A stretch of DNA of 32,000 nt from Geobacter metallireducens GS-15 (GCF_000012925.1 NC_007517.1:2580001-2612000), one strand, 5' to 3'. Positions 1 through 13,318 are shown, numbered from the stretch's first letter. A program made the numbers and translations. The notes: generated from the letters alone by a model not told the origin.

Positions 1-72
1 GCCAGCCAATTCCCGAAAGGAAAGCAGCACAGCCATGGGCAATTTCTTAAGCGCAATTTGCGCTAAAAGGGG

Positions 73-1260
73 TTGTTTATGGCTATTTTCACATCAGAGA
101 ACAATCAAGTAGTGTCCCCCAGCATGGCGGAGTCTGTAACACGCCATGCGCAAAACCCACCTACCGGAAATTTCCAGTTCCTTGCCTGCGGCATTGATAC
201 CCTTGATCTGGGTCTGTTCGTGTCGTGGGACGCCAACTGGAACCGCACCAAGTCGTATCTTTCCGAGAAGAAGGAAGCCTCCCAGGGAACAACCGGCCTT
301 CTCGACAAGACCGACATCAGCCGGGAGTTTCTCCACCACGCAAGCGGCAAGGCTCCCAACTATCGCTATCAGCTCCAGTTCCCAGAATACCGCGTCTATC
401 TCGCCATTTCCGACAAGCCCGGCGCCTCGCCGAACGTCTATGTAACGATCCTGGCGGAAGCCCTCTGGCATGTGGGCCTATCAACCCTCCTGGAGCTGTT
501 GGAGTTCGACCTTATGAGCTTCGGCGGCACTATCGAGCGTGTCCAGCCGAGCCGGTGCGACCTCTGCGCAGACTTCAGAGTGAATCCGCCCCTCGCCTTT
601 TCCCTTCTCGAAATCCTCCGGGTGTCCCGCAGTCGCAAGATCAGAATGATAACGAACGGCGGCGACCTGGAAACCTACTATTGCGGCTCTGCTAACTCTC
701 CCGTCCAGGTGCGAATCTACGACAAGGGGAAAGAGATTCAGAAGAGCAACAAGCAATGGTTTCTGCCGATCTGGGGTGTGGATGATCCGGGAGGGGTCTG
801 GCGGGTCGAGTTCCAGCTTCGCCGCTCATTTCTCCATCAGTACCGGATAAAGACCCTTGACGACCTCTGGGAGAAGGTCGGCGCAATCTGGGCGTATCTC
901 ACAGGGGAATGGTTCTCGCTCCGGCTCCCCGACAACGAGAAGGCGGAACGGCGCACCATTCATCCCTGGTGGCTGGCGGTGCAGGAATGCCGGGACCGGT
1001 TCGGGGCCTTTCGGGATGCCAAGAGGACATTTTCCAGCGACAGCATGGAGCCGATTCAACGCACCCTTGCCCACATTATGGGAAGGATGATCTCCATTGC
1101 CGCCCAAAGCGGAATCAAGGACCGCAAGGAGGCGATCCGGTATCTGGGCCAGCTCCTTGACGAGCGCACCGATGATGACAAGTTCCGGGAGGAATACCGC
1201 AAGCGGTTAATCAGGCTCGGCTATCGCGGCACCCTGGGAGGGTCGGACGATGAGGAATGA
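73..1260 (+). CDS. Replication-initiation-factor-like protein (rolling-circle Rep_trans / phage gene II-like family)
   Basis: 395-aa ORF with motifs recalled from Rep_trans-type initiators: RCDLCADFRV (R-x-D-l-a-x-D-f), VQVRIYDKGKEIQ (YDK-x-x-E) and VWRVEFQLRR (R-v-E-l-q-l-R). The track start is TTG at 73; ATG at 79 is an alternative. Confidence 0.5.
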   Translation: MFMAIFTSENNQVVSPSMAESVTRHAQNPPTGNFQFLACGIDTLDLGLFVSWDANWNRTKSYLSEKKEASQGTTGLLDKTDISREFLHHASGKAPNYRYQLQFPEYRVYLAISDKPGASPNVYVTILAEALWHVGLSTLLELLEFDLMSFGGTIERVQPSRCDLCADFRVNPPLAFSLLEILRVSRSRKIRMITNGGDLETYYCGSANSPVQVRIYDKGKEIQKSNKQWFLPIWGVDDPGGVWRVEFQLRRSFLHQYRIKTLDDLWEKVGAIWAYLTGEWFSLRLPDNEKAERRTIHPWWLAVQECRDRFGAFRDAKRTFSSDSMEPIQRTLAHIMGRMISIAAQSGIKDRKEAIRYLGQLLDERTDDDKFREEYRKRLIRLGYRGTLGGSDDEE

Positions 1261-1591
1261 TAACCTTCCACCCTCCCCTGACCTTCTCACCGTGGAGCAG
1301 TTCGCCGAACGGATGCAGGTGTCCCGCACCACCATCTTTGGTTGGATCAAGGCGGGTGCCCTCAAGGAAAGGGTCCACTATATCCGACTCGGCCGCATCT
1401 TGCGCTTTCGCTGGGGGGTTGACCTTTTCTTCAACCGCCCGACACTGGCGAACAACGCGGAGGATGCCCCGGAAACGCCACCGCAGGCCACGGTCGGCAC
1501 GCTGGATTCTCAGCGGGGCGAAGCCCCGGTCAACCGCCCGCCTTTGACTTTAGAACGCCACAAGGGGCCGGTCATGAACCTTGACTATTGA
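1250..1591 (+). CDS. Excisionase-family / AlpA-like helix-turn-helix DNA-binding protein
   Basis: LLTVEQFAERMQVSRTTIFGWIKAGAL...RLGRILRFRW matches the HTH_17/excisionase pattern (HTH followed by an R-x-x-R-F/W wing). The ATG overlaps the 3' end of the Rep-like gene, and the gene sits directly upstream of an integrase. Confidence 0.65.
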   Translation: MRNDNLPPSPDLLTVEQFAERMQVSRTTIFGWIKAGALKERVHYIRLGRILRFRWGVDLFFNRPTLANNAEDAPETPPQATVGTLDSQRGEAPVNRPPLTLERHKGPVMNLDY

Positions 1592-1669
1592 TAATGCGAT
1601 GAAAGGCCGCTATGCTCCCCTCGGACTTAAGACGCACTGAAGGGAGGGTAACGGCCATGAGGTGACACA

Positions 1670-2980
1670 ATGAGAATGAAGAAAGGCATGCTTGCCTTGG
1701 AAGAACCAGTAAAGCAAATCGGAGCCATCAAGCGGCGCAAGGAGTCGAAGAAGCTCTACGTGGATTTCTACTACTTCGGGCGCAGGATAACGAGAAGCAC
1801 GGAACTGAACGACACCCCGGCCAATGAACGAAAGGTCCGGGCCTTTCTCGACAAGGTGATGCAGCGGATCGAGGACGGGACGTTCAAGTTTGCGGAGGCG
1901 TTCCTAGGAGCCACGGAGGAAGAGAAGGAGTTCTTCACCCAACTGGAAGGAAGGGAGTACCGGCCGGAACCACATCAGGTGGTTTTCGGAGAGTATGTGA
2001 AGGAGTGGATGGCGACGATCTTCCCCACCTTCGGCTCACCGACCAAGCGGCGGGACTATCGGGAGGCAATCGAAACGAGAATCCTTCCGGCCTTTCGGAA
2101 CATGACGTTCCACCAGATAACCGGGATGGCGGTATTCCGGTTCACGGAGTCGCTGGTCTGGAAAAAGGGCATCCACAAGGGAAAGCCCCTCTCCACGGCC
2201 AGGAAGAGCAACATCCTGATTCCGTTTCGCTCCATCTGGAACGATGCCTGCGACCATTACCGCTGGGTTATCAAGAGTCCCTTCGATAACCTGAGAAAGC
2301 GGCTTCCCAAGACCGAGAAGAAGGAACACACCGTTATCCGCTTCGCCGACTGGCTCACGTTCCTTGACAATCTGGAAGTGCATTACCGCCCCATCGCGGA
2401 ACTGATGATCCTTACCGGGATGATCCCTTCGGAGTTGGGGGGACTACGGAAGGACGATATCGAGGGGAATTACCTCAACGTCCGCAACTCCTACGTCCTC
2501 GGCGTGGAGAAGAAGAGCCTCAAGACCGCTTTCCGCAAGAGGCAAATCTCCATCACGGAAGCCATCAGGAAGCGGCTACAAGAACTTCAGAACCGCCCCG
2601 GCTCTCCTTACCTCTGCACGATGGTTGACGGCTCACGGTTCAACAGTAGCCGGTTCTGCAAGGTCTGGAAGAAGGCGGTGGATCAGGCCGGGATTCCCTA
2701 CGTTACCTCCTACTCGGCCCGGCACTCTTTCGCGGCGTGGAGTCTCATTATCGGGGTGAATCCGTTACGGCTCGTCAAGCTCATGGGGCATGCCAGCAAG
2801 CAAATGGTCTATGAGGTCTACGGGAACTACGTGGAGGGATTGGAAGAGGACGCGGAAAACATCTTCCGCTACTTCGGCAGGGACTTCATTATCCCCGGAA
2901 AAAGCAAATCCCCGATACCGTTTAGAGACAGTACCGGGGACAGTTTCGCGAACAACCTCTTAACTTTCGGAGATTGTTAG
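1670..2980 (+). CDS. Tyrosine recombinase / phage-type integrase of element A
   Basis: C-terminal catalytic signature ARHSFAAWSLIIGVNPLRLVKLMGHASKQMVYEVYGNY (R...H-x-x-R...H...Y). N-terminal arm-binding-like region LYVDFYYFGRRI. Adjacent to the tRNA-derived att repeat. Confidence 0.85.
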   Translation: MRMKKGMLALEEPVKQIGAIKRRKESKKLYVDFYYFGRRITRSTELNDTPANERKVRAFLDKVMQRIEDGTFKFAEAFLGATEEEKEFFTQLEGREYRPEPHQVVFGEYVKEWMATIFPTFGSPTKRRDYREAIETRILPAFRNMTFHQITGMAVFRFTESLVWKKGIHKGKPLSTARKSNILIPFRSIWNDACDHYRWVIKSPFDNLRKRLPKTEKKEHTVIRFADWLTFLDNLEVHYRPIAELMILTGMIPSELGGLRKDDIEGNYLNVRNSYVLGVEKKSLKTAFRKRQISITEAIRKRLQELQNRPGSPYLCTMVDGSRFNSSRFCKVWKKAVDQAGIPYVTSYSARHSFAAWSLIIGVNPLRLVKLMGHASKQMVYEVYGNYVEGLEEDAENIFRYFGRDFIIPGKSKSPIPFRDSTGDSFANNLLTFGDC

Positions 2981-2987
2981 ATTTTTT

Positions 2988-3034
2988 TGGAGCGGGAAAC
3001 GGGATTCGAACCCGCGACCTTCAGCTTGGGAAGC
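2988..3034 (-). repeat. 47-nt remnant of the tRNA-Gly(CCC) 3' end (att core repeat shared by elements A and B)
   Basis: tggagcgggaaacgggattCgaacccgcgaccttcagcttgggaagc matches 9986-10032 at 46 of 47 positions (C at 3007, T at 10005). Similarity stops abruptly at 3035, inside the anticodon stem. Confidence 0.9.
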
Positions 3035-3100
3035 AGGACACAAATCTTTCACGCCCCCACAACCCGCTCTATCACCATCTCGTTTATAGTCCATAACTTG

Positions 3101-3129
3101 TTGACTTATATCTGATTTTCCCATAGAGT
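3101..3129 (+). promoter_or_regulatory. Putative sigma70 promoter of the element-B integrase
   Basis: TTGACT (3101-3106), 17-nt spacer, TAGAGT (3124-3129), about 90 nt upstream of the int ATG. The putative arm-type repeats lie between this promoter and the start codon. Confidence 0.4.
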
Positions 3130-3175
3130 TATCCAAGCCAAGCCTCGCTTCATACGCTTTACTGCAAGCCCACTA

Positions 3176-3200
3176 GAGGTTGCTTGCAGGTTGCTTGTAG
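3176..3200 (+). repeat. Tandem GGTTGCTTG(C/T) motifs (putative integrase arm-type binding sites, left end of element B)
   Basis: gaGGTTGCTTGCaGGTTGCTTGTag. An almost identical 26-nt block occurs at 9904-9929 in the same orientation. Confidence 0.55.
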
Positions 3201-3216
3201 CACTCAGAGGGAAATC

Positions 3217-4461
3217 ATGTCAACGCAATTCTCAGACAAGTTCATTCAAAACCTGAAGCCTGAAGCCAAGAAGTATTACATCCGGGAGAGTCGAGGATTC
3301 GCCATAGTCGTCCACCCTTCCGGTATCAAGAACCCGAAAGGGACAAAGACTTTCCTTTACATCTACACCATCAACGGCAAGCGCAAGGAGTTGAAGCTAG
3401 GGAATTACCCAGAGGTAACGCTCAAGGATGCTCGCATCAAGCACGGCGAAGCCTATGCACGTTTGGTTAATGGAGAAGACCCAGTCACCCCTCCAGTCAT
3501 TAAAGCTGAGCCGCAAGACGAAAACCTCACCTTCGGTCACTTCACAGAGTTATACCTCCAATGGTCAAAAGATAATCATTCGCCCAAGTGGCACAACACT
3601 ATCAAGTGCGCCCTGAATAAAGATGCACTTCCTGTCTGGGAATATACACTCATAGCTTCCATCAAGCGTCGTGACGCTATAGCCTTTCTTGAAAACGTAG
3701 CAAGGCGGGGTATCCAAGTAATCAACTTACACAAGGCGACCAGCTCAGTCTTTGACTATGCTTTAGAGCGTGAATACATCGAATCAAACCCGATGGCAGG
3801 ATTAAAAGCAAAGACTATCCCGGCCCTTAAACCAAAAGCGAGAGAGCGCTTTCTCTCAGACAGTGAGATAAAACACGTCTGGAAGGCCATAGACGAGGGG
3901 CCGGGTTATGATGAAACCAAGCGTGCCTTGAAACTCATAATGGTAACAGCACAGCGACCGGGGGAGGTTGCAGCAATGCACAGGCGGGAGATTCAAACAG
4001 GCGTCGGTAAACCACGTTGCAAGATATGCAAGCGGTGCGGGTGGTGGACTATTCCGGCAGAAAGGATGAAGAACGGAGAGGAGCACAGGATATACCTTAC
4101 CCCTACAGCCCTCGAACTGATCGGAGATGCAGAGGGGTATATCTTTCCGTCACCACAGGACGGGCAACCTATAAACAGAAACTCCCTTTCCCAGCTTGTC
4201 AGTAGAGAGAGAAACAACAAGAAGCCCAATGGGGAGATGTACCCACCGTATTATGGATTGCCTGAGTGGACGCCTCACGATCTGAGACGCACGGCCCGGA
4301 CCCTTCTGGCTCGTGTTGGCGTACCGGAGGAGCACGCAGAGGAAGTGCTCAGTCACAAGAAAGAGGGCTTAGTGGACAGGTACAACCGCCATGACTACAT
4401 GGAGGAGAAGAAGGAGGCCTTGATTAAACTGGAAGCTGAGTTGATGAAATTGAGCATATAA
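3217..4461 (+). CDS. P4-type (DUF4102 N-terminus) tyrosine integrase of element B
   Basis: N-terminus FSDKFIQNLKPEAKKYYIRESRGFAIVVHPSG...LKLGNYPEVTLKDAR is the typical P4-like arm-binding domain. Catalytic residues: TAQRPGEV (R), HDLRRTART (H-x-x-R) and DRYNRHDY (Y). Start moved to ATG 3217 (GAGGG 6 nt upstream) from the TTG at 3184. Contains a Cys-rich insert, CKICKRCGWW. Confidence 0.9.
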   Translation: MSTQFSDKFIQNLKPEAKKYYIRESRGFAIVVHPSGIKNPKGTKTFLYIYTINGKRKELKLGNYPEVTLKDARIKHGEAYARLVNGEDPVTPPVIKAEPQDENLTFGHFTELYLQWSKDNHSPKWHNTIKCALNKDALPVWEYTLIASIKRRDAIAFLENVARRGIQVINLHKATSSVFDYALEREYIESNPMAGLKAKTIPALKPKARERFLSDSEIKHVWKAIDEGPGYDETKRALKLIMVTAQRPGEVAAMHRREIQTGVGKPRCKICKRCGWWTIPAERMKNGEEHRIYLTPTALELIGDAEGYIFPSPQDGQPINRNSLSQLVSRERNNKKPNGEMYPPYYGLPEWTPHDLRRTARTLLARVGVPEEHAEEVLSHKKEGLVDRYNRHDYMEEKKEALIKLEAELMKLSI

Positions 4462-4496
4462 GCAATGAAATTGCATTGAAAGTGAGGATGATGCCG

Positions 4497-4934
4497 ATGA
4501 GAGCTAAGTCGATATTGTTATTTATGGTGATTGCTTTGTATCCAACGTTTGTTGCAGCACTCGATAGTGAAGAAAAATATACTGGGTTTCATATTGACGT
4601 TTACGATGAGGCACTAACAAACAAAGTCATAGCTAATGCGGCTAAATGCGAAGTTATAGATCAATTACTTAACGGTGAAAGAAAGTCTTGTTATCTGTCA
4701 AACGCTATACATAAGATTATTAGTGAGCCTGACAACAAGTTAGTGAGGTATATGCCATTAAGAAATAATTACAATCGGTTGTTTATAGAATATGAAGTTG
4801 CCTATCACGCTTTAAGGAATGCACAATTCGGAGCACTTAAAACCATGAAAACGCTCAATGCTATTAGTGTGAGTGGCCTTCTTGAAATGTATTCTAAATC
4901 AAATTGCCCTGAGCTTAACAAATCACAGGATTGA
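4497..4934 (+). CDS. Small secreted hypothetical protein (AT-rich, foreign-looking gene)
   Basis: MRAKSILLFMVIALYPTFVAA|LDSEE looks like a Sec signal peptide. GAGGA lies 8 nt upstream of ATG 4497 (the track ORF starts at TTG 4476). Codon usage is clearly AT-biased compared with its neighbours. I recognise no domain. Confidence 0.6.
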   Translation: MRAKSILLFMVIALYPTFVAALDSEEKYTGFHIDVYDEALTNKVIANAAKCEVIDQLLNGERKSCYLSNAIHKIISEPDNKLVRYMPLRNNYNRLFIEYEVAYHALRNAQFGALKTMKTLNAISVSGLLEMYSKSNCPELNKSQD

Positions 4935-5067
4935 CAAATAACCCTGTCTCGTCTTCTGATGCTATATCCCCACCCCTTCATCTCCCGATGAAGACTGTAG
5001 CGTCCAGTACATACAGTAGCGATCTTATCGCTCTTCTAAAGGGCTGGTAATCGAAGTAATTCTTGGC

Positions 5068-5096
5068 TTGACAGGCCTGATTTGTAAGTGTATAAA
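5068..5096 (+). promoter_or_regulatory. Near-consensus sigma70 promoter of the serine recombinase gene
   Basis: TTGACA (5068-5073), 17-nt spacer, TATAAA (5091-5096). GGAGGG RBS at 5125-5130 and ATG at 5138. Confidence 0.55.
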
Positions 5097-5137
5097 TTCA
5101 TCAACGACCATATTGAAATTACACGGAGGGCCAGACA

Positions 5138-5788
5138 ATGAAACGCTACGTGTCCTATCTCAGGGTATCAACCGACAAGCAAGGCCGGGAGGGCTACGGA
5201 GTAGGTGCACAACGAGAGGCCGTAGCCAACTACCTGAACGGGGGCAAGTGGGAGTTACTACGGGAGTTCGTAGAGGTGGAATCAGGAAGGAAGAAGGACC
5301 GCCCGGAGCTGGCAGCGGCTCTTTCCTTCTGCAAGCTGACTAAGTCCACCTTGATCGTTGCCAAGCTGGACCGCCTAGCCCGCAACGTGGCGTTTGTATC
5401 TTCGCTCATGGAATCTGGGGTTGACTTCGTAGCGGTAGACTTCCCAGAAGCAAACAAGCTGACTGTCCATATCCTTGCAGCGGTTGCGGAACATGAGGCC
5501 GGTATGATTTCCACCCGCACCAAAGCAGCCTTAGCGGCAGCAAGGACAAGGGGCGTCAAGCTGGGGAATCCTAACCTAACCAATGAAGCCCGGAGCGCTG
5601 GCAGGGTTGCAAGGGCTATGAAGTCCGATGAAGATGCAAAGAGGGTAAAACCCATCATTGAAGGATTGAGACTGCAAGGCATGGGACTTAGAGAGACTGC
5701 AAGGGAACTGAACCGGCAAGGAATCCGAACGCCACTAGGAAAGGACTGGACCGCTACGGCAGTCAAGAACGCAATGGCGAGATGGTGA
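5138..5788 (+). CDS. Small serine recombinase (resolvase/invertase family)
   Basis: N-terminal catalytic motif YVSYLRVSTDKQ (nucleophilic Ser), KLDRLARN and ISTRTKAAL motifs, and a C-terminal HTH-like region (GLRETARELNRQGIRT). Confidence 0.9.
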   Translation: MKRYVSYLRVSTDKQGREGYGVGAQREAVANYLNGGKWELLREFVEVESGRKKDRPELAAALSFCKLTKSTLIVAKLDRLARNVAFVSSLMESGVDFVAVDFPEANKLTVHILAAVAEHEAGMISTRTKAALAAARTRGVKLGNPNLTNEARSAGRVARAMKSDEDAKRVKPIIEGLRLQGMGLRETARELNRQGIRTPLGKDWTATAVKNAMARW

Positions 5789-5886
5789 AGCTCTGAGGCG
5801 TCAAGGTTGACAGGTGGTTTCCCTTCTCCTTCCTGTCCCTGACAGGCCTAGCGCCTCGCCCGGCCCGCTCCCTGATCGCCACGGAG

Positions 5887-5903
5887 CCCCCCCCCCCCCC
5901 CCC
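5887..5903. repeat. Homopolymeric C17 tract (G17 on the minus strand)
   Basis: Counted directly: 17 consecutive C, followed by a-cccc-at-ggggg (palindrome ccccatgggg). Intergenic, about 100 nt after the recombinase stop. Confidence 0.95.
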
Positions 5904-6121
5904 ACCCCATGGGGGAAAGCGCACGACGAGGGCGAGGGCAGACCCCTTGCACGCACCGGCTGTAATTTCGAGAATCTGAGTGCAGCCGACTCAGCCCGTC
6001 AAGCTATTTGCCCGCCCGCTGGACCTCTTCCCGAATAACAACCCACGCCTAGCCCTCACCCGGAATAAAAGCTCGTCACAGGTCAAATATGGTAGCTGTA
6101 TCCGTTTACCTATATGGCAAA

Positions 6122-6151
6122 TTGAACTAGAGCACCGCTCCGTGCTATAAA
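6122..6151 (+). promoter_or_regulatory. Putative sigma70 promoter of the 3-TM/zinc-ribbon gene
   Basis: TTGAAC (6122-6127), 18-nt spacer, TATAAA (6146-6151). It overlaps the track's GTG start (6152), which argues for the ATG at 6179 preceded by AAGGA. Confidence 0.45.
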
Positions 6152-6178
6152 GTGGAGGCAAGCAGAAAGGACCCGAAG

Positions 6179-6736
6179 ATGACAGAGTCTCAATCCCATT
6201 CAGTTCGTAACGGAGTTATTGCAACTGTCTTAGGTGGACTTATCTTGTCTGCAATACCCTATGCACGTGGTTTACTACTAAGCCTCATCGCATGGGTTTG
6301 GTCTGGGGCTGTTTGGGCACGGAAAACCATCACCTTGTCATATCCGACACCGGGGTGGTTACTGCTACTCATAGGGCTGTTCGCACTTTATGGCGCAGTA
6401 TGCACCCTCTTTGCACTCCGGCCCAAGAAAGAACCCCTCCACAAGAAGTACACTGAAGATATTATTTACGGTGCAAAGTGGCGCTGGTCTTGGGTGGGAA
6501 GTAATGTTTCAAATCTTTGGTGCTATTGCCCGACGTGTGATGCAACTCTTGTTTATGATGACAGCTCTTGTCGCTCCCGGTATGAACCAAGCAAAACCGA
6601 CTTTATCTGTGAGCGGTGCAATGGAAAGGTTGTTACAACAATCCAAGGTGGAAACAAATCATACGCTGTCGGTGCTGCCGAAAGGGAACTTCTCCGCAAG
6701 GTGAGGACCGGGGAGTATGTCGCTGCTATCCAATGA
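6179..6736 (+). CDS. Membrane protein with about 3 N-terminal TM helices and a C-terminal CxxC...CxxC zinc-ribbon-like domain; function unknown
   Basis: Hydrophobic stretches VIATVLGGLILSAIPY, LLLSLIAWVWSGAVWA and GWLLLLIGLFALYGAVCTLFAL. Then CYCPTCDATLVYDD...DFICERCNG (two CxxC pairs). Confidence 0.65.
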   Translation: MTESQSHSVRNGVIATVLGGLILSAIPYARGLLLSLIAWVWSGAVWARKTITLSYPTPGWLLLLIGLFALYGAVCTLFALRPKKEPLHKKYTEDIIYGAKWRWSWVGSNVSNLWCYCPTCDATLVYDDSSCRSRYEPSKTDFICERCNGKVVTTIQGGNKSYAVGAAERELLRKVRTGEYVAAIQ

Positions 6737-6947
6737 CTGAAGAAAAGAGCCTCGCCCGCAATTCAAGCAATCGAAATTGGGACAAGGTGGCCGTAACACG
6801 GGAGCGGCCCAAGGGAGCACCGTAGATCACTGAGAGAGAACACAGACTGCTCGCACCTCGGCTACTGGCTCAACCTTGGGCAATCAAACGGGCTACTATG
6901 TAACCGGCCTCAGCCGGATAGATATAAATAACCGTATGTAAGACAAG

Positions 6948-7427
6948 TCAGTCTGATAAGTTGTACCAGTCAGGGAAGCGGTCACTCTTTATGCGCCACG
7001 CCACGGTGGATTGAGAGAGACCAGCAGCTTTTGCAGCTTCTCTTTGATGAGTGAAGACACCGATAGGCGTGCTAATCTTGGAGCCACGAGTAGGCTTTTT
7101 CGACCCGGTTGCATAAGCACGCTTCATACAGCGAGAGCGACAGCTCCACTCAAGATTGCTTGCGTTGTTGTTGCTACGATTCCCATCTTTGTGCCTTACA
7201 CAAGGAAGCTCGTCGGGATTGTCAATGAAGGCCTCAGCTACAACCCTATGCCACAAGAGCGCCTTGGGTTTCTTGCTCTCTCCAACGTACAAATTTGCAA
7301 TGCACCCTTTCTTTGAAACTGAAGGGCTCAATACGTGCCTTGTCTTTATCCGTCGAATATCCCCGTTATTTGAGACTTCGTACTCACGCGCCTCCCGTAC
7401 CACTTTCCATCGTTCGCTCTCGGTCAT
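6948..7427 (-). CDS. Free-standing HNH homing-type endonuclease (NUMOD4-like N-terminus, HNH core, C-terminal HTH)
   Basis: WKVV...YEVSNNGDIRRI (NUMOD4-like), CVRHKDGNRSNNNASNLEW (H-N-N core) and REAAKAAGLSQSTVAWRIK (HTH). A G9 run sits in the SD position upstream. Confidence 0.8.
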   Translation of the reverse strand: MTESERWKVVREAREYEVSNNGDIRRIKTRHVLSPSVSKKGCIANLYVGESKKPKALLWHRVVAEAFIDNPDELPCVRHKDGNRSNNNASNLEWSCRSRCMKRAYATGSKKPTRGSKISTPIGVFTHQREAAKAAGLSQSTVAWRIKSDRFPDWYNLSD

Positions 7428-7433
7428 ACCCAG

Positions 7434-7442
7434 CCCCCCCCC
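7434..7442. repeat. C9 tract (G9 on the coding strand), 6-15 nt upstream of the HNH start codon
   Basis: Counted directly. On the minus strand it reads gcGGGGGGGGGctgggtATG. Confidence 0.9.
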
Positions 7443-7534
7443 GCTCTTGTAGCACTCTAGCCCGTTTTTTATCTCTCTTATAATTCTTTACTCTTCGTCT
7501 ACTACTTAGCGCTCCGTCTTCGACGGTACTACTT

Positions 7535-7668
7535 GTTCGCTCAGAGGTTCCTGTATCTATAGGACGGGTTTATTTTACGATGAGAAATGAGAAATGAAAC
7601 CATCGGGACTCTGTCACGCATCGGAACGGCTGGTTCGCTCAGAGGTTCCTGTATCTATAGGACGGGTT
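7535..7668. repeat. Pair of identical 36-bp direct repeats separated by 62 bp
   Basis: gttcgctcagaggttcctgtatctataggacgggtt at 7535-7570 and 7633-7668. The spacer contains the tandem gagaaatgagaaatga. Confidence 0.9.
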
Positions 7669-7872
7669 AATTCATCTTAACGGAGAGCACTTGCACGCGC
7701 CGGTTGCAATCCCAAGGGTGAGAGCCCAACTCTCAGACCGTCCTTTTAACGCACCCCGCCGCCCACTGGCTCGCCCGCAACTTGTCACCCCTCACCTTAC
7801 CCTTCGCCAGCCCGTGCCCGCCCTCAGAAACGATAATAATTTGAAACCGCCGTGCGAGACCGGGAGTGCGCT

Positions 7873-7949
7873 ATATTATTAATAGTATGGGTTAATTGCT
7901 TGCCCGCACGCCATATTATTAATAGTATGGATTAATTGCTTGCCCGCAC
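7873..7949. repeat. Two tandem 37-bp repeats (40-bp period, 1 mismatch), each containing AATTGCTTGC
   Basis: atattattaatagtatggGttaattgcttgcccgcac at 7873-7909 and atattattaatagtatggAttaattgcttgcccgcac at 7913-7949. Confidence 0.9.
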
Positions 7950-8101
7950 TACAGATGCCCCTGAGTGCGTCAGATATTGCGCCAGAAAGGCTTCGAGTAC
8001 TCCGGGCAGGGCATACCATTGCCCGACACCGCCCAACCCGCCAGAGGGCTATATTTTTTAAGTTGTGCCGGTGCAATGAATTGAGAGTACGCAAAAGAAA
8101 A

Positions 8102-9427
8102 GGTTCTTCAGGGAATTCCGGGGAAGATTAATAAACAACAACGGCAGCACTGCGGTATCTTGATGGTTCCCCAACCAAAAAAGATCGCAGGAGGCTGCCG
8201 TTGTCGTATTCCGATGTTATCGCAATTGCGGGAGGGTGGGAAGGATATCGTGTTGCTGGGACACGCACTATCGTCACAGGTGATGCCAAACGGATCGAGG
8301 TAGAACTGATTGCCCTGTCCCAGGATGAGATGGTGTGTGGCTCGTGCGGCGGGCGTTGCACAAGCGTCCATGAAACGACCAAGCGCGTAATTCGAGATTT
8401 GCCGATTCTCGATGCTCAGACTTATCTGATCGTTCACCGCCGCAGGCTGCTGTGCCCTCAGTGTGGGCCAACGCTGGAGCGTCTGTCATGGCTGGCGAAA
8501 TACGCCCGCGTGACGCGCAGGCTTGCAGAGAGCGTAGCGCGACTGTGTGGTGTCGTGTCTGTGAAGCACGTGGCGCAGTATCTGGGGCTTTCTTGGGACC
8601 AGGTGAAGGAAATCGACAAGCGCTCACTCACAGAGCGGGTCGGCACCGTCGACCTCTCAAACATCGAAGTTCTCGGGATGGATGAGTTCGCCCTTCACAA
8701 GGGGCACCGCTATGCGACGGTTATCATCGAGCCATACCGTAAGGAAGTCTTATGGATCGGCAAAGGCAGGAGTCGCGAGAGTATCCGTCCTTTCTTCACG
8801 CAGCTTGGCCCACATGGCTGTAAACGGCTCAAAGCGGTCGTGATGGATATGAACGCATCATATGAGGAGGAAATCAAGCAGCACTCGCCCCAGGCAGACA
8901 TAGTCTACGACCTGTTCCATGTGGTGGCGAAGTATGGCAGGGAAGTGATCGACAGGGTGCGAGTCGATGAGGCAAACCGCCTGAAGGAAGACAAGAAGGC
9001 ACGGAAGGTAGTCAAAACATCGCGGTGGTTGCTGCTACGAAACAGCGAGAACGTCAAGGGCGACGACATGCTTCGCCTCCAGGAACTGTTGGAGGCAAAC
9101 CGCAGCCTCCTTACGGTCTACCTGCTCAAAGACGATCTGAAGCAACTGTGGAAGTTTACCTGCATTGAAGAGGCGGGACTATTCTGGGAGCAGTGGCACC
9201 AAAGGGCGATGGAGAGTGGAATACCGCCACTCATCCTGTTTGCCCGCCGGCTAAAGGGCTATCTCCAAGGAATCCTCAACCACTGCCTCTGGCCCCTTCA
9301 CACCGGAATCCTCGAAGGCATCAATAACAAGATCAAGGTGATCAAAAGAATGGCCTACGGCTTCCGGGATCACGAATACTTCTTTCTCAAGATCAGAGCC
9401 GCTTTCCCCGGAATTCCCGGATGAACC
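8102..9427 (+). mobile_element. ISL3-family insertion sequence (1326 bp) with imperfect terminal inverted repeats and an 8-bp target-site duplication
   Basis: IRL is GGTTCTTCAGGGAATTCCGGGGAA (from 8102). The reverse complement of IRR is GGTTCATCCGGGAATTCCGGGGAA (ending at 9427). It is flanked by identical AAAGAAAA at 8094-8101 and 9428-9435. It has a single transposase ORF. Confidence 0.9.
8201..9424 (+). CDS. ISL3-family DDE transposase
   Basis: N-terminal zinc finger CGSCGG...CPQCG (zf-ISL3 type), about 400 aa, stop codon inside the right IR. TTG start preceded by AGGAGG 6 nt upstream. Confidence 0.85.
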   Translation: MSYSDVIAIAGGWEGYRVAGTRTIVTGDAKRIEVELIALSQDEMVCGSCGGRCTSVHETTKRVIRDLPILDAQTYLIVHRRRLLCPQCGPTLERLSWLAKYARVTRRLAESVARLCGVVSVKHVAQYLGLSWDQVKEIDKRSLTERVGTVDLSNIEVLGMDEFALHKGHRYATVIIEPYRKEVLWIGKGRSRESIRPFFTQLGPHGCKRLKAVVMDMNASYEEEIKQHSPQADIVYDLFHVVAKYGREVIDRVRVDEANRLKEDKKARKVVKTSRWLLLRNSENVKGDDMLRLQELLEANRSLLTVYLLKDDLKQLWKFTCIEEAGLFWEQWHQRAMESGIPPLILFARRLKGYLQGILNHCLWPLHTGILEGINNKIKVIKRMAYGFRDHEYFFLKIRAAFPGIPG

Positions 9428-9460
9428 AAAGAAAAGCCCCGAACCATTGAAGGCCGGGGC
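9428..9460 (-). terminator. Rho-independent terminator of the small-ORF operon; its T-tract was the ISL3 target
   Basis: The minus strand reads GCCCCG-(13-nt loop)-CGGGGC followed by TTTTCTTT. The TTTTCTTT is the complement of the AAAGAAAA target duplication. Confidence 0.6.
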
Positions 9461-9492
9461 GTGATAGCCTGATTGCAGGTTACAGGTGGGAA

Positions 9493-9630
9493 CTAAGGTG
9501 CAAGGCGCTTCAGGCGTTCCAGCGCCTCCACGTTGATACCGATTTTAGCTTGTGCCTCCCTGAGCGTTATTGCCTTCCTGCTGTGAACGAGGGTCAGGTG
9601 CTTTCTTGTGATTGCGTTCTTGATCGTCAT
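9493..9630 (-). CDS. Hypothetical 45-aa protein, possibly a minimal HTH (regulator or excisionase candidate)
   Basis: ATG 9630 is preceded by GAGG. ITLREAQAKIGINVEALERLKRL resembles helix 2, turn and helix 3 of XRE-type HTHs. It is followed by a terminator. The call is weak because the ORF is very short. Confidence 0.35.
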   Translation of the reverse strand: MTIKNAITRKHLTLVHSRKAITLREAQAKIGINVEALERLKRLAP

Positions 9631-9637
9631 ACGCGCC

Positions 9638-9784
9638 TCAATCCGGGAGGGTGGCAGAGTATTCATCTTGAGCATTGAAGCACTCTTCCTGCCTGTCGCA
9701 AGCTAGGCACTTCCTGAAGGTCGCCATGTGCTGTTTCTCCCATGATTTGAAGTCGGTATTCATCTGGTCAATCTCTGCTTGCAT
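9638..9784 (-). CDS. Hypothetical 48-aa protein (contains CLAC...C)
   Basis: ATG 9784 is preceded by a strong GAGGAGG 5 nt upstream. Its stop lies 10 nt before the next small ORF. No recognisable domain. Confidence 0.4.
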   Translation of the reverse strand: MQAEIDQMNTDFKSWEKQHMATFRKCLACDRQEECFNAQDEYSATLPD

Positions 9785-9888
9785 CTTCTCCTCCTCATCG
9801 TTAAGGGCTATCGACAATCGGCGGACAGGAGCGAACCGGATGCAGGAGGGGCACGGGATAATCGAAAACAGACAGATGCAGACAGGCG

Positions 9889-9927
9889 GGTTGCTTGCCA
9901 ACGGAGGTTGCTTGCGGGGTTGCTTGT
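9889..9927 (+). repeat. Three GGTTGCTTG(C/T) motifs (putative integrase arm-type sites, right end of element B)
   Basis: GGTTGCTTGC at 9889-9898 and 9906-9915, GGTTGCTTGT at 9918-9927. They lie about 60-100 nt from the tRNA 3' end, in the same orientation as the copies at 3178-3198. Confidence 0.55.
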
Positions 9928-9985
9928 AGATTCTGGAAAGAGAAAAAGGGGCTGCCAAAAACTGGCTAACCCCTTGATTTCTTTA

Positions 9986-10060
<75 letters not shown>

Positions 10061-12154: not shown

Positions 12155-13318
12155 ATGACCAAGGCTGCACCGAAAGACATTGCCGCGACTTTCTTCGCCG
12201 CTGCCGAACGGGCATCCCGCACGGAAGTCGAGGAAGTGCGCAAACAAGTCCTCCTCGACACCACCCTCACGTCGCTGATCGACGCCATACCCGACTATGC
12301 CCTCGTCCTCAACCAGGAACGACAGGTTGTTGCGGCCAACCGTCATCTGCTGGACGCCTTCGGGTTGGGCATCGCCTCCATCATCGGCAAGCGTCCTGGC
12401 GAGACTTTCGGCTGCATCTTCTCCTCGGAGGGGCCGGCGGGTTGCGGCACCGGCAATCACTGTTCCGTCTGCGGTGCGGTCATGTCGATCCTCGAAAGCC
12501 AGGAAACCCTCATCCAGAACTGCCATGAGTGCCATATTAGCCTCAACCGGAACGACATAACATCCATGGACCTTGAGGTGTGCTCAACTCCCGCCACGGT
12601 CAATGGCATCCCGGTCACCGTTTGCGTCATGCGCGACATCAGCGACCAGAAGCGTCGAAGCGTCCTCGAGCGGGTCTTTTTCCATGACGTGATCAACACC
12701 GTCGGCGGCATTCACGGCATTGCCGCCATGCTCATGGAACACCCGGATCTCCCCCCTGAAAAGGAACTCGAATATAAGGAGTGGATGGTCCTCCTGTCGA
12801 ACCGACTTATCGACGAGATCAACCACCAGCGCAAGCTCCTTGACGCCGAAAGGGGGGAATTCAGACCAGACCTTGGGATGGTGCGCGTGCCGGATCTGGT
12901 GCGGGAGGTCCATGCCCTCTATGTGACCCACGATATCGCAGCGGGACGCCACCTGGTCATGGGAGAGATCGCTGACTGCTCCATCGAAAGCGATGGGCAG
13001 ATCCTGCACCGCATCCTCGGAAACCTTGTAAAAAATGCCCTGGAGGCGACGCCACAGGAGGGAACCGTTACCCTTTCCTGCTCCGAAGACGCCGAGCGGG
13101 TCACCTTTGCCGTTACCAACCCGGGGGTCATGCCGGCAGAGGTCCAGCTCCAGATATTTCAGCGTTCCTTCAGCACCAAGGCAGGCAGCGGCAGGGGGAT
13201 CGGCACTTACAGCGTGAAGCTCTTCGGCGAGCGGTACCTGAAGGGGAAGGTTGCATTCACCAGTCGAGAGCCGGAAGGGACCTCCTTCACCCTGTCAGTC
13301 CCCAAGCATTTCAACTAG
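12155..13318 (+). CDS. Soluble sensor histidine kinase with a Cys-rich PAS-like input domain
   Basis: H-box FFHDVINTVGGIHGIAAML. ATPase N-box LGNLVKNALEAT and G-box GRGIGTYSVKLF. No TM segment is evident. The PAS-like N-terminus carries C-x9-C-x5-C-x2-C...C-x2-C-H. Start moved to ATG 12155 (GGAG upstream). Confidence 0.85.
   Translation: MTKAAPKDIAATFFAAAERASRTEVEEVRKQVLLDTTLTSLIDAIPDYALVLNQERQVVAANRHLLDAFGLGIASIIGKRPGETFGCIFSSEGPAGCGTGNHCSVCGAVMSILESQETLIQNCHECHISLNRNDITSMDLEVCSTPATVNGIPVTVCVMRDISDQKRRSVLERVFFHDVINTVGGIHGIAAMLMEHPDLPPEKELEYKEWMVLLSNRLIDEINHQRKLLDAERGEFRPDLGMVRVPDLVREVHALYVTHDIAAGRHLVMGEIADCSIESDGQILHRILGNLVKNALEATPQEGTVTLSCSEDAERVTFAVTNPGVMPAEVQLQIFQRSFSTKAGSGRGIGTYSVKLFGERYLKGKVAFTSREPEGTSFTLSVPKHFN

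Follow-up and report, generated by a model that had tools for sequence, protein, structure and literature searches.

In phage P4, repeats to which Int binds flank the core of the attachment site attP, and the int gene is repressed by Int and by Vis. For the integrase IntS of KplE1 (CPS-53) in Escherichia coli, the int promoter lies in an arm of the attachment (att) region and negative autoregulation has been demonstrated (Panis et al. 2010, PMC2951348), and an inward-reading layout with autoregulation has been predicted for 61.5% of tRNA-associated int genes (PMC2951348). In ICEKp1 and ICEclc, transcription of int starts from the tRNA promoter or from one that the opposite end of the element supplies (PMC13023037). 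Here we consider a stretch of 32,000 nucleotides of Geobacter metallireducens GS-15 (NC_007517.1:2580001-2612000, hereafter the window, from whose first letter all positions are counted) and more particularly element B, an islet inserted at a tRNA-Gly gene, its integrase IntB and a short repeated sequence, GGTTGCTTG(C/T), which a first-pass annotation of this DNA had proposed to be the arm-type sites of the integrase.

The locus has in part been described: a pseudo-tRNA 6.6 kb from a tRNA-Gly was noted by Butler 2007 (PMC1924859), the pair forming the 3' edge of a 300-kb aromatics island, with the integrases Gmet_2271, 2278 and 2279 nearby (PMC1924859). That paper (PMC1924859) holds no description of repeats at the tRNA-Gly locus, the GS-15 genome paper mentions neither integrases nor tRNA-Gly(CCC), and a literature search combining the motif with Geobacter found no papers.

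The anatomy of the locus, the statistics of the motif, its conservation, its concerted change at both ends and its association with the N-terminal domain (N-domain) of the integrase were computed here. On the strength of these sequence comparisons, we consider that the five GGTTGCTTG(C/T) repeats are very probably arm-type binding sites of IntB. The proposal of the first-pass annotation is thus supported by the tRNA repeats that bound the islet, by the arm-binding N-domain of the integrase, by the positional conservation of the repeats, by the concerted change of the motif and by the way in which the motif tracks the N-domain.

The repeats of element B and its integrase

Element B is an integrative islet in the 3' end of tRNA-Gly(CCC) of G. 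metallireducens GS-15, of ~7 kb (about 3035-9985), lying between two 47-nt copies of the tRNA-Gly 3' part. The intact tRNA-Gly(CCC) is on the minus strand at 9986-10060 (ARAGORN; Rfam RF00005, 74.6 bits) and its 3' 47 nt (9986-10032, minus strand) represent the att core copy of the tRNA-proximal junction; the core copy of the int-proximal (distal) junction is the pseudo-tRNA at 2988-3034, also on the minus strand. Both are included in a direct repeat, D1 (2984-3034 versus 9982-10032, 96% identity), and the two 47-nt copies show one mismatch and share an exact block of 27 nt (3008-3034, identical to 10006-10032). This is the layout of an insertion into a tRNA 3' end, in which the intact tRNA has been restored by the copy carried by the element and the 3' fragment displaced to the far end, and the same layout is found in 11 related loci of which both ends are visible.

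The motif GGTTGCTTGY occurs exactly five times in the window, always on the plus strand, with no other copy on either strand. The left (int-proximal, P'-like) arm carries GGTTGCTTGC at 3178-3187 and GGTTGCTTGT at 3189-3198, with a spacing of 11 nt, and the right (tRNA-proximal, P-like) arm carries GGTTGCTTGC at 9889-9898 and again at 9906-9915, followed by GGTTGCTTGT at 9918-9927 with a spacing of 12 nt from the preceding copy, all on the plus strand. The five positions and the common strand given in the first-pass annotation (3178, 3189, 9889, 9906 and 9918) were recovered, and so was its view that five copies do not arise by chance, as 100 dinucleotide-preserving shuffles averaged 0.12 copies and never reached five. 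The left pair is found 19-39 nt upstream of the int ATG (its second repeat ends 18 nt before the ATG) and 144-164 nt from the core block (its first repeat starts at 144 nt), and between the right copies and the tRNA-Gly(CCC) 3' end there are 59-97 nt, the third repeat ending at 59. The blocks 3176-3200 and 9904-9929 (25-26 nt), reported from the outset as near-identical, indeed differ only in the spacer, a versus gg, and the sequences flanking them are unrelated to each other. The tRNA core sequence does not contain the motif, whose clusters lie on both sides of the core, one per junction, as is expected of arm sites.

The gene intB (3217-4461, plus strand) starts 182 nt from the pseudo-tRNA, reads inward and encodes a P4-type tyrosine integrase of 414 aa, 100% identical to a GS-15 protein annotated "integrase, bacteriophage P4-type". 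Pfam profiles recognise an Arm-DNA-bind_3 domain (PF13356, residues 5-90, 4e-16), a central domain (PF22022) and a catalytic domain (PF00589), so that IntB has a dedicated arm-binding N-domain beside its core-binding and catalytic domains; this N-domain matches the structures 3ju0, 3jtz and 3rmp of the PDB, which are N-terminal domains of "CP4-like integrase" proteins. The likeness is at the level of the domain family only, the score against NCBIfam PRK09692 being 67.6 bits for a cut-off of 434. In an alignment of 34 sequences including IntB, R211, K239, H354, R357, H380 and Y389 occupy invariant or near-invariant columns, and we take R211, K239, H354-x-x-R357, H380 and Y389 to fill the catalytic R-K-H-x-x-R-H/W-Y roles, from general knowledge of the family. 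The catalytic domain of IntB is apparently intact.

Upstream of intB, a consensus scan predicted a sigma-70-like promoter, TTGACT-17-TAGAGT (3101-3129, plus strand), located between the core and the left pair, and a ribosome-binding site (RBS), GAGGG, is present at 3207-3211 (plus strand). In an alignment with four orthologous loci, the columns of the TTGAC and TA...T blocks do not vary, and TTGACx-17-TAnnnT is also visible in more distant two-ended loci. The left pair is thus placed in the int 5' leader, after the promoter and just before the RBS; the repeats do not overlap the promoter hexamers, being separated by about 40-60 nt from the predicted -10 that precedes them. Because this conserved promoter stands between the core and the left pair and the pair abuts the RBS, autoregulation of int by Int bound to the left pair, as had been suggested, is plausible by analogy with described systems; we place it midway between likely and unlikely because the repeats miss the promoter hexamers.

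At the other end of the islet, a hairpin followed by a U-run (9943-9982, minus strand; RNA fold -20.6 kcal/mol, z = -3.9) represents an intrinsic terminator of the tRNA gene, carried by the element. It sits between the right arm repeats and the core and is kept in the related loci L002, L003 and L005, described below, and in other two-ended loci. An Rfam scan gave only the tRNA, and no structured RNA that would explain the repeats. A promoter-like match on the minus strand (9958-9930), which overlaps the right arm, was set aside, since no conservation of it can be seen in L002, L003 or L005.

Conservation of the repeats among related integrase loci

We retrieved the contigs encoding the closest Int homologs and read them for repeats. 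The closest one, L001 (Int 86% identical), has the left pair GGTTGCTTGC a GGTTGCTTGT, its right end not being on the contig, and L002 (Int 64%) has the same left pair, GGTTGCTTGC a GGTTGCTTGT, and a right arm composed of GTTGCTTGA, GGTTGCTTGA and GGTTGCTTGA with 17/12-nt spacing as in the window, GTTGCTTGA being the counterpart, at the same 17-nt offset, of the first right repeat of element B. L003 (Int 57%) carries GGTTGCACA and GGTTGCACG on the left and again GGTTGCACA and GGTTGCACG on the right, and L005 (Int 55%) carries GGATGCACA and GGATGCACG on the left and two copies of GGATGCATG on the right; the right ends of L002, L003 and L005 adjoin an intact tRNA-Gly. The motif is therefore kept at 86% and 64% Int identity, and is GGTTGCAC at 57% and GGATGCA at 55%, with both ends alike in each case. 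In L001 and L002, the distance from the left pair to the start codon is that of the window, in a leader that has otherwise diverged, and in the alignments the core, the -35/-10 hexamers, the repeats, the RBS and the terminator hairpin stand out as conserved islands in divergent sequence. Across the att regions of related elements, the repeats are positionally conserved while their flanks diverge, and the motif is conserved in the elements that have orthologous integrases, as the first-pass interpretation implied.

Inverted copies of the motif were also observed in some relatives. An inverted, slightly degenerate arm motif directly abuts the core in L001 (30-41, CCAAGCAACT) and in L002 (121-132, CTAAGCAACC), the corresponding position of the window (3035-3046) being occupied by an unrelated sequence, AGGACACAAATC; one or two inverted copies are found near the left pair in the more distant L005, L023, L030, L034 and L045.

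A scan of a genome collection gave 80 loci with Int homologs (30-48% identity), mostly from Geobacteraceae and Desulfuromonadales, and 52 related loci were analysed. Of these 52 loci, 49 have, no more than 110 nt upstream of int, a direct repeat that is exact over at least 8 nt and spaced by 10-13 nt, versus 35 of 2080 random control windows taken from the same loci (1.7%), and the best repeat pairs have a spacing of 11-12 nt. The motif varies by lineage, with for example GAGGTTCCA, AGAGGTTACAC, AAACGGCAAC, AAACGGATGCA and AAAGTACAACT, and further lineage motifs upstream of int are TTGGTGTAAAG, TACGGCAC, AGGATACG and AGACCATACTA. Both ends are visible in 12 loci, and in all 12 the same lineage-specific pair is present, on the same strand, beside the intact tRNA, which may be Gly-CCC, Pro-CGG, Pro-TGG, Ala-CGC, Ser-CGA or Arg-CCT. 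In these two-ended loci, an exact copy of 26-60 nt of the tRNA 3' part is located upstream of int. The distance between the end of this core block and the start of the left pair is 138-150 nt, that between the end of the right pair and the tRNA 3' end is 46-59 nt, and almost all exact occurrences of the motif core fall within the two arms. Clustering of the open reading frames (ORFs) of the 12 two-ended elements showed a single protein family, Int, to be shared by every one of them; the second-largest cluster consists of antisense shadow ORFs within int, AlpA-like proteins are encoded in seven elements and resolvases in five.

Across the core, the motifs of the two arms always agree. One arm motif can be associated with different cores, such as GGTTACAC, found with a tRNA-Gly fragment (L002 1-30) and with a tRNA-Pro (L045), and conversely the tRNA-Gly is shared by the different arm motifs GGTTGCTTG, GGTTGCAC, GGATGCA and GGTTACAC. 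Over 51 loci, the similarity of the motifs follows the identity of the N-terminal 95 residues of Int (Spearman 0.45) and not that of the catalytic domain (Spearman 0.07); the partial rank correlation of motif and N-domain given the catalytic domain is 0.44 (permutation p = 0.0005), and the reverse partial correlation, of motif and catalytic domain, is -0.04 (p = 0.75). The sites are therefore conserved in position and change together with the arm-binding domain, which is what arm sites should do. Among the same 51 Int homologs, the identities of the N-domain and of the catalytic domain are themselves weakly correlated (Spearman 0.22), which suggests frequent domain shuffling between integrases.

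The first-pass annotation had also pointed to shorter internal ATTGCTTGC strings as echoes of the motif. The strings are present, at 7155, 7895 and 7935, and their relation to the motif is unsupported, as is the suggestion that they are traces of an older att site or a second place of binding. With up to two mismatches, the window contains 64 matches to the motif for 48 +/- 7 expected, which is near chance level; two of the three strings are a single event, copied by the 40-nt tandem duplication D4; all three are devoid of the leading GG that is kept among the closer relatives and are unpaired at 11-12 nt; and the region in which they lie has no counterpart in related elements. We have therefore not retained them as degenerate arm sites, although they could still be bound.

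The motif was also sought in metagenomes, as GGTTGCTTGY-N1-2-GGTTGCTTGY, and at least 80 loci were obtained, which were uninformative for the arm-site question: among the matches listed, most pairs are simple tandem repeats, and none of 80 has an Int homolog or a tRNA downstream of the pair. The 10-mer pair alone is not diagnostic of this islet family. Eight metagenome contigs (L087, L092, for example at 12293-12560, L130, L134, L135, L138, L149 and L158) share the context ttttggGGTTGCTTGYACGGTTGCTTGCatt...cgtgcaagggg, with no Int homolog within 1.5 kb downstream, and in L092 a tRNA-like remnant is found just upstream, as an ORF translation with VEVRGFEPLTPCMP. Perhaps this shared context is an att arm belonging to an unrelated element with the same 9-mer.

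Proposed function of the repeats and alternative explanations

On the model of lambda Int, each protomer of IntB would dock on one arm repeat by its Arm-DNA-bind_3 domain while its central and catalytic domains would bind the 47-nt tRNA-derived core, and bending of the DNA would allow protomers to bridge arm and core and to form the intasome (the lambda-type domain roles on which this mechanism is modelled are summarised in PMC2951348). In the excised circle, both clusters would flank the core in an attP of ~310 bp, with the order three repeats, 59 nt including the terminator hairpin, core, 143 nt with the int promoter, two repeats and int; in the integrated state, one cluster is located at each junction. 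As the repeats are about one helical turn apart, they would be on the same face of the DNA, and the rigid distances of 46-59 nt and 138-150 nt would point to a conserved intasome geometry, probably with DNA bending. For integration host factor (IHF), inspection of the 143-nt spacer by eye, with no tool used, gave no convincing conserved match. Int bound to the left pair might also repress its own transcription.

Several points weigh against the assignment of the repeats to IntB or against parts of this scheme. Physical binding, intasome geometry and autoregulation are what we infer. PMC7498355 describes the sites of recombination directionality factors (RDFs) as typically direct repeats one helical turn apart, which resembles the 11-12-nt spacing of the repeats considered here. 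The predicted int promoter matches the consensus at 9/12 positions only, and since the repeats and the promoter do not overlap, repression would require a roadblock or looping. Element B may no longer be active, because it has no recognisable excisionase and carries the insertion of an insertion sequence (IS). The correlation between motif and N-domain could be partly linkage, because the left pair adjoins the DNA that codes for the N-domain, and its significance is overstated, as is usual for Mantel-type tests on related sequences. Pure linkage is nevertheless argued against because the left and right arms match across the core and yet the same motif occurs with different tRNA cores.

Binding of the repeats by an RDF (an excisionase, AlpA/Xis-like) or by another small regulator encoded by the element is unlikely in our opinion, but an RDF is the only serious alternative to an integrase, because RDFs too, as stated in PMC7498355, bind helically phased direct repeats. 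The RDF TorI of KplE1 binds within the int promoter region (PMC2951348), and an AlpA-like protein is encoded in 7 of the 12 related two-ended elements; however, the other five, which have no AlpA-like ORF, still bear repeats on both arms, and the similarity of the motifs tracks the N-domain of Int. In lambda and P4, RDF sites are usually on one arm only, whereas element B has its sites on both arms. No cognate RDF was recognised in element B either: tblastn, Pfam and NCBIfam found no AlpA/Xis homolog in 3035-9985, the best AlpA match by tblastn (E = 0.055) being outside the element. Two small minus-strand ORFs are located at the tRNA-proximal end (9493-9675 and 9638-9958, or shorter), neither of which is matched by Pfam or NCBIfam; since relatives carry their AlpA-like gene at this place, one of the two could encode an excisionase that escaped recognition.

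The remaining explanations fare worse. That the repeats would be operators of a host transcription factor, such as a response regulator, acting on int and on a gene of the far end with no role in recombination, is very improbable: for some regulators it is typical to have direct repeats spaced by 11 nt after a promoter, and the left pair is indeed within the int leader, but the motif differs among elements of closely related Geobacteraceae hosts and even between neighbours at one tRNA (L002 1-30 versus 261-282), which indicates that it follows the element and not the host, and the right copies are at a fixed distance from the tRNA with no conserved gene downstream. The near-identity of the blocks 3176-3200 and 9904-9929, in a locus that is an array of tandem islands, could evoke chance or a functionless duplication of a 25-nt block, for instance as a by-product of recombination between tandem islands; the unrelated flanks of the blocks, the absence of any shuffle reaching five copies (0/100) and the position of the repeats, which is kept across 12 two-ended loci with different motifs and tRNAs, effectively refute it. 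Just as negligible is the idea of iterons of a replication origin used in the excised circle, suggested by short direct repeats at roughly helical spacing and by the Rep_trans-like protein encoded in the neighbouring element A, as no replication initiator was found in element B or its relatives, each cluster has only 2-3 copies, and the clusters are split around the att core at fixed distances.

With the repeats taken as arm sites of IntB, the functional ends of the islet are defined (attL, attR and the implied ~310-bp attP), so that excision and integration assays can be designed, for an islet located where the 300-kb aromatics-degradation island of G. metallireducens is bounded by tRNA-Gly (PMC1924859). 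The ~20 pairs of motif and N-domain constitute a natural data set for the recognition code of PF13356 and possibly for the reprogramming of arm recognition. We also propose, quite tentatively and as something less likely than not, that attP geometry is rigid while arm sites and N-domain diversify rapidly, independently of the catalytic domain and of the tRNA, and that this divergence could insulate elements from one another; if true, divergent arms would let islets stack at one tRNA, as they do in the window and in L002, with no cross-excision or scrambling by the integrase of a neighbour.

Surroundings of the islet and comparison with described systems

On its left side, the pseudo-tRNA is adjoined by element A (window 1-2983), which is unrelated to element B and contains a Rep_trans-like ORF (73-1260), an HTH_17 ORF (1250-1591) and an integrase with an Arm-DNA-bind_2 domain (1670-2980), whose stop codon is 4-8 nt from the tRNA fragment. 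Because element A abuts the pseudo-tRNA of element B, the locus is a tandem array of islands. Comparable arrangements were seen in relatives. The contig of L003 starts with the C-terminus of an integrase like that of element A (77% identity over 47 aa), upstream of an element that resembles B. In L002, the sequence to the left of the pseudo-tRNA (1-121) is the entire right arm of a second islet belonging to this family, in which two copies of GAGGTTACAC spaced by 12 nt come together with a terminator hairpin and with a 3' fragment of a tRNA, and because of this second right arm, two islets with different arm motifs are in tandem at one tRNA-Gly.

Besides intB, the coding content of element B comprises genes for a serine resolvase and for an HNH/NUMOD4 endonuclease together with unannotated ORFs, and an ISL3 element has inserted in it; both element B and its relatives are islets of 4-11 kb in which no phage or conjugation genes were found. 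The ISL3-family IS is complete (8102-9427), with 24-nt terminal inverted repeats (I1) and a 407-aa transposase, and is bounded by an 8-bp target duplication, AAAGAAAA, at 8094-8101 and 9428-9435; its insertion point is apparently beside a small hairpin, with no gene hit. Two homopolymers were noticed, a C17 tract (5887-5903) directly past the resolvase gene and a C9 run (7434-7442, G9 on the minus strand) directly upstream of the start codon of the HNH endonuclease, at the expected RBS position, and either could be slippage-prone or sensitive to sequencing. A dispersed 27-nt repeat with 81% identity (D10; 5940-5966, AGACCCCTTGCACGCACCGGCTGTAAT, and 7684-7710, AGAGCACTTGCACGCGCCGGTTGCAAT), with no Rfam match, begins two GC-rich non-coding stretches, one past the resolvase gene and the other past the repeats associated with the HNH gene. 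Downstream of this gene there are a 51-nt direct repeat (D2; 7524-7574 and 7622-7672, 90% identical, 98 nt apart) and D4 (7869-7948), a 2 x 40-nt tandem repeat that contains a near-palindrome, ATATTATTAATAGTAT, followed by AATTGCTTGCCCGCA.

Compared with lambda and its arm sites (P1, P2, P'1-P'3), element B also has a heterobivalent integrase with a separate N-terminal arm-binding domain (PMC2951348), short direct repeats that flank the core and are unlike it in sequence, neighbouring sites separated by about one helical turn, and an attP that would span a few hundred bp. By contrast, the N-domain is PF13356 instead of the Phage_integ_N (PF09003) of lambda (PMC2951348), element B has its own motif and its own number of sites (2 + 3), all oriented on a single strand, the core is the 47-nt 3' end of a tRNA and not a 15-bp intergenic core, and no Xis, IHF or Fis sites were identified in element B (IHF being judged by eye). 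The P4/CP4-like integrases belong to the same family as IntB (PF13356 + PF22022 + PF00589) and also integrate in tRNA 3' ends; element B differs in being a small islet, in a likeness limited to the domain family and in a repeat sequence that is specific to the lineage.

KplE1 resembles element B in its insertion at a tRNA with int reading inward, which places its promoter, as it would the predicted one of element B, inside the recombination region, beside arm-type sites. Unlike in element B, where the repeats adjoin the RBS and no RDF is recognisable, an arm site of KplE1 overlaps the -10 box and the RDF TorI binds there; moreover, the int junction of element B has the pseudo-tRNA and not the intact tRNA. 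With ICEKp1 and ICEclc, element B would have in common that the expression of int depends on sequence across the att junction (PMC13023037), but its tRNA points away from int, a terminator hairpin separates its right end from the core and a conserved predicted promoter is present directly upstream of int. The architecture of element B is thus standard for heterobivalent tyrosine integrases, in a family of 4-11-kb islets of Geobacteraceae that was previously undescribed, and arm sites, an ordinary feature of such elements, had not previously been pointed out for element B; less ordinary are the constant attP geometry, the fast modular turnover of arm specificity and the presence of tandem islets with different motifs at one tRNA.

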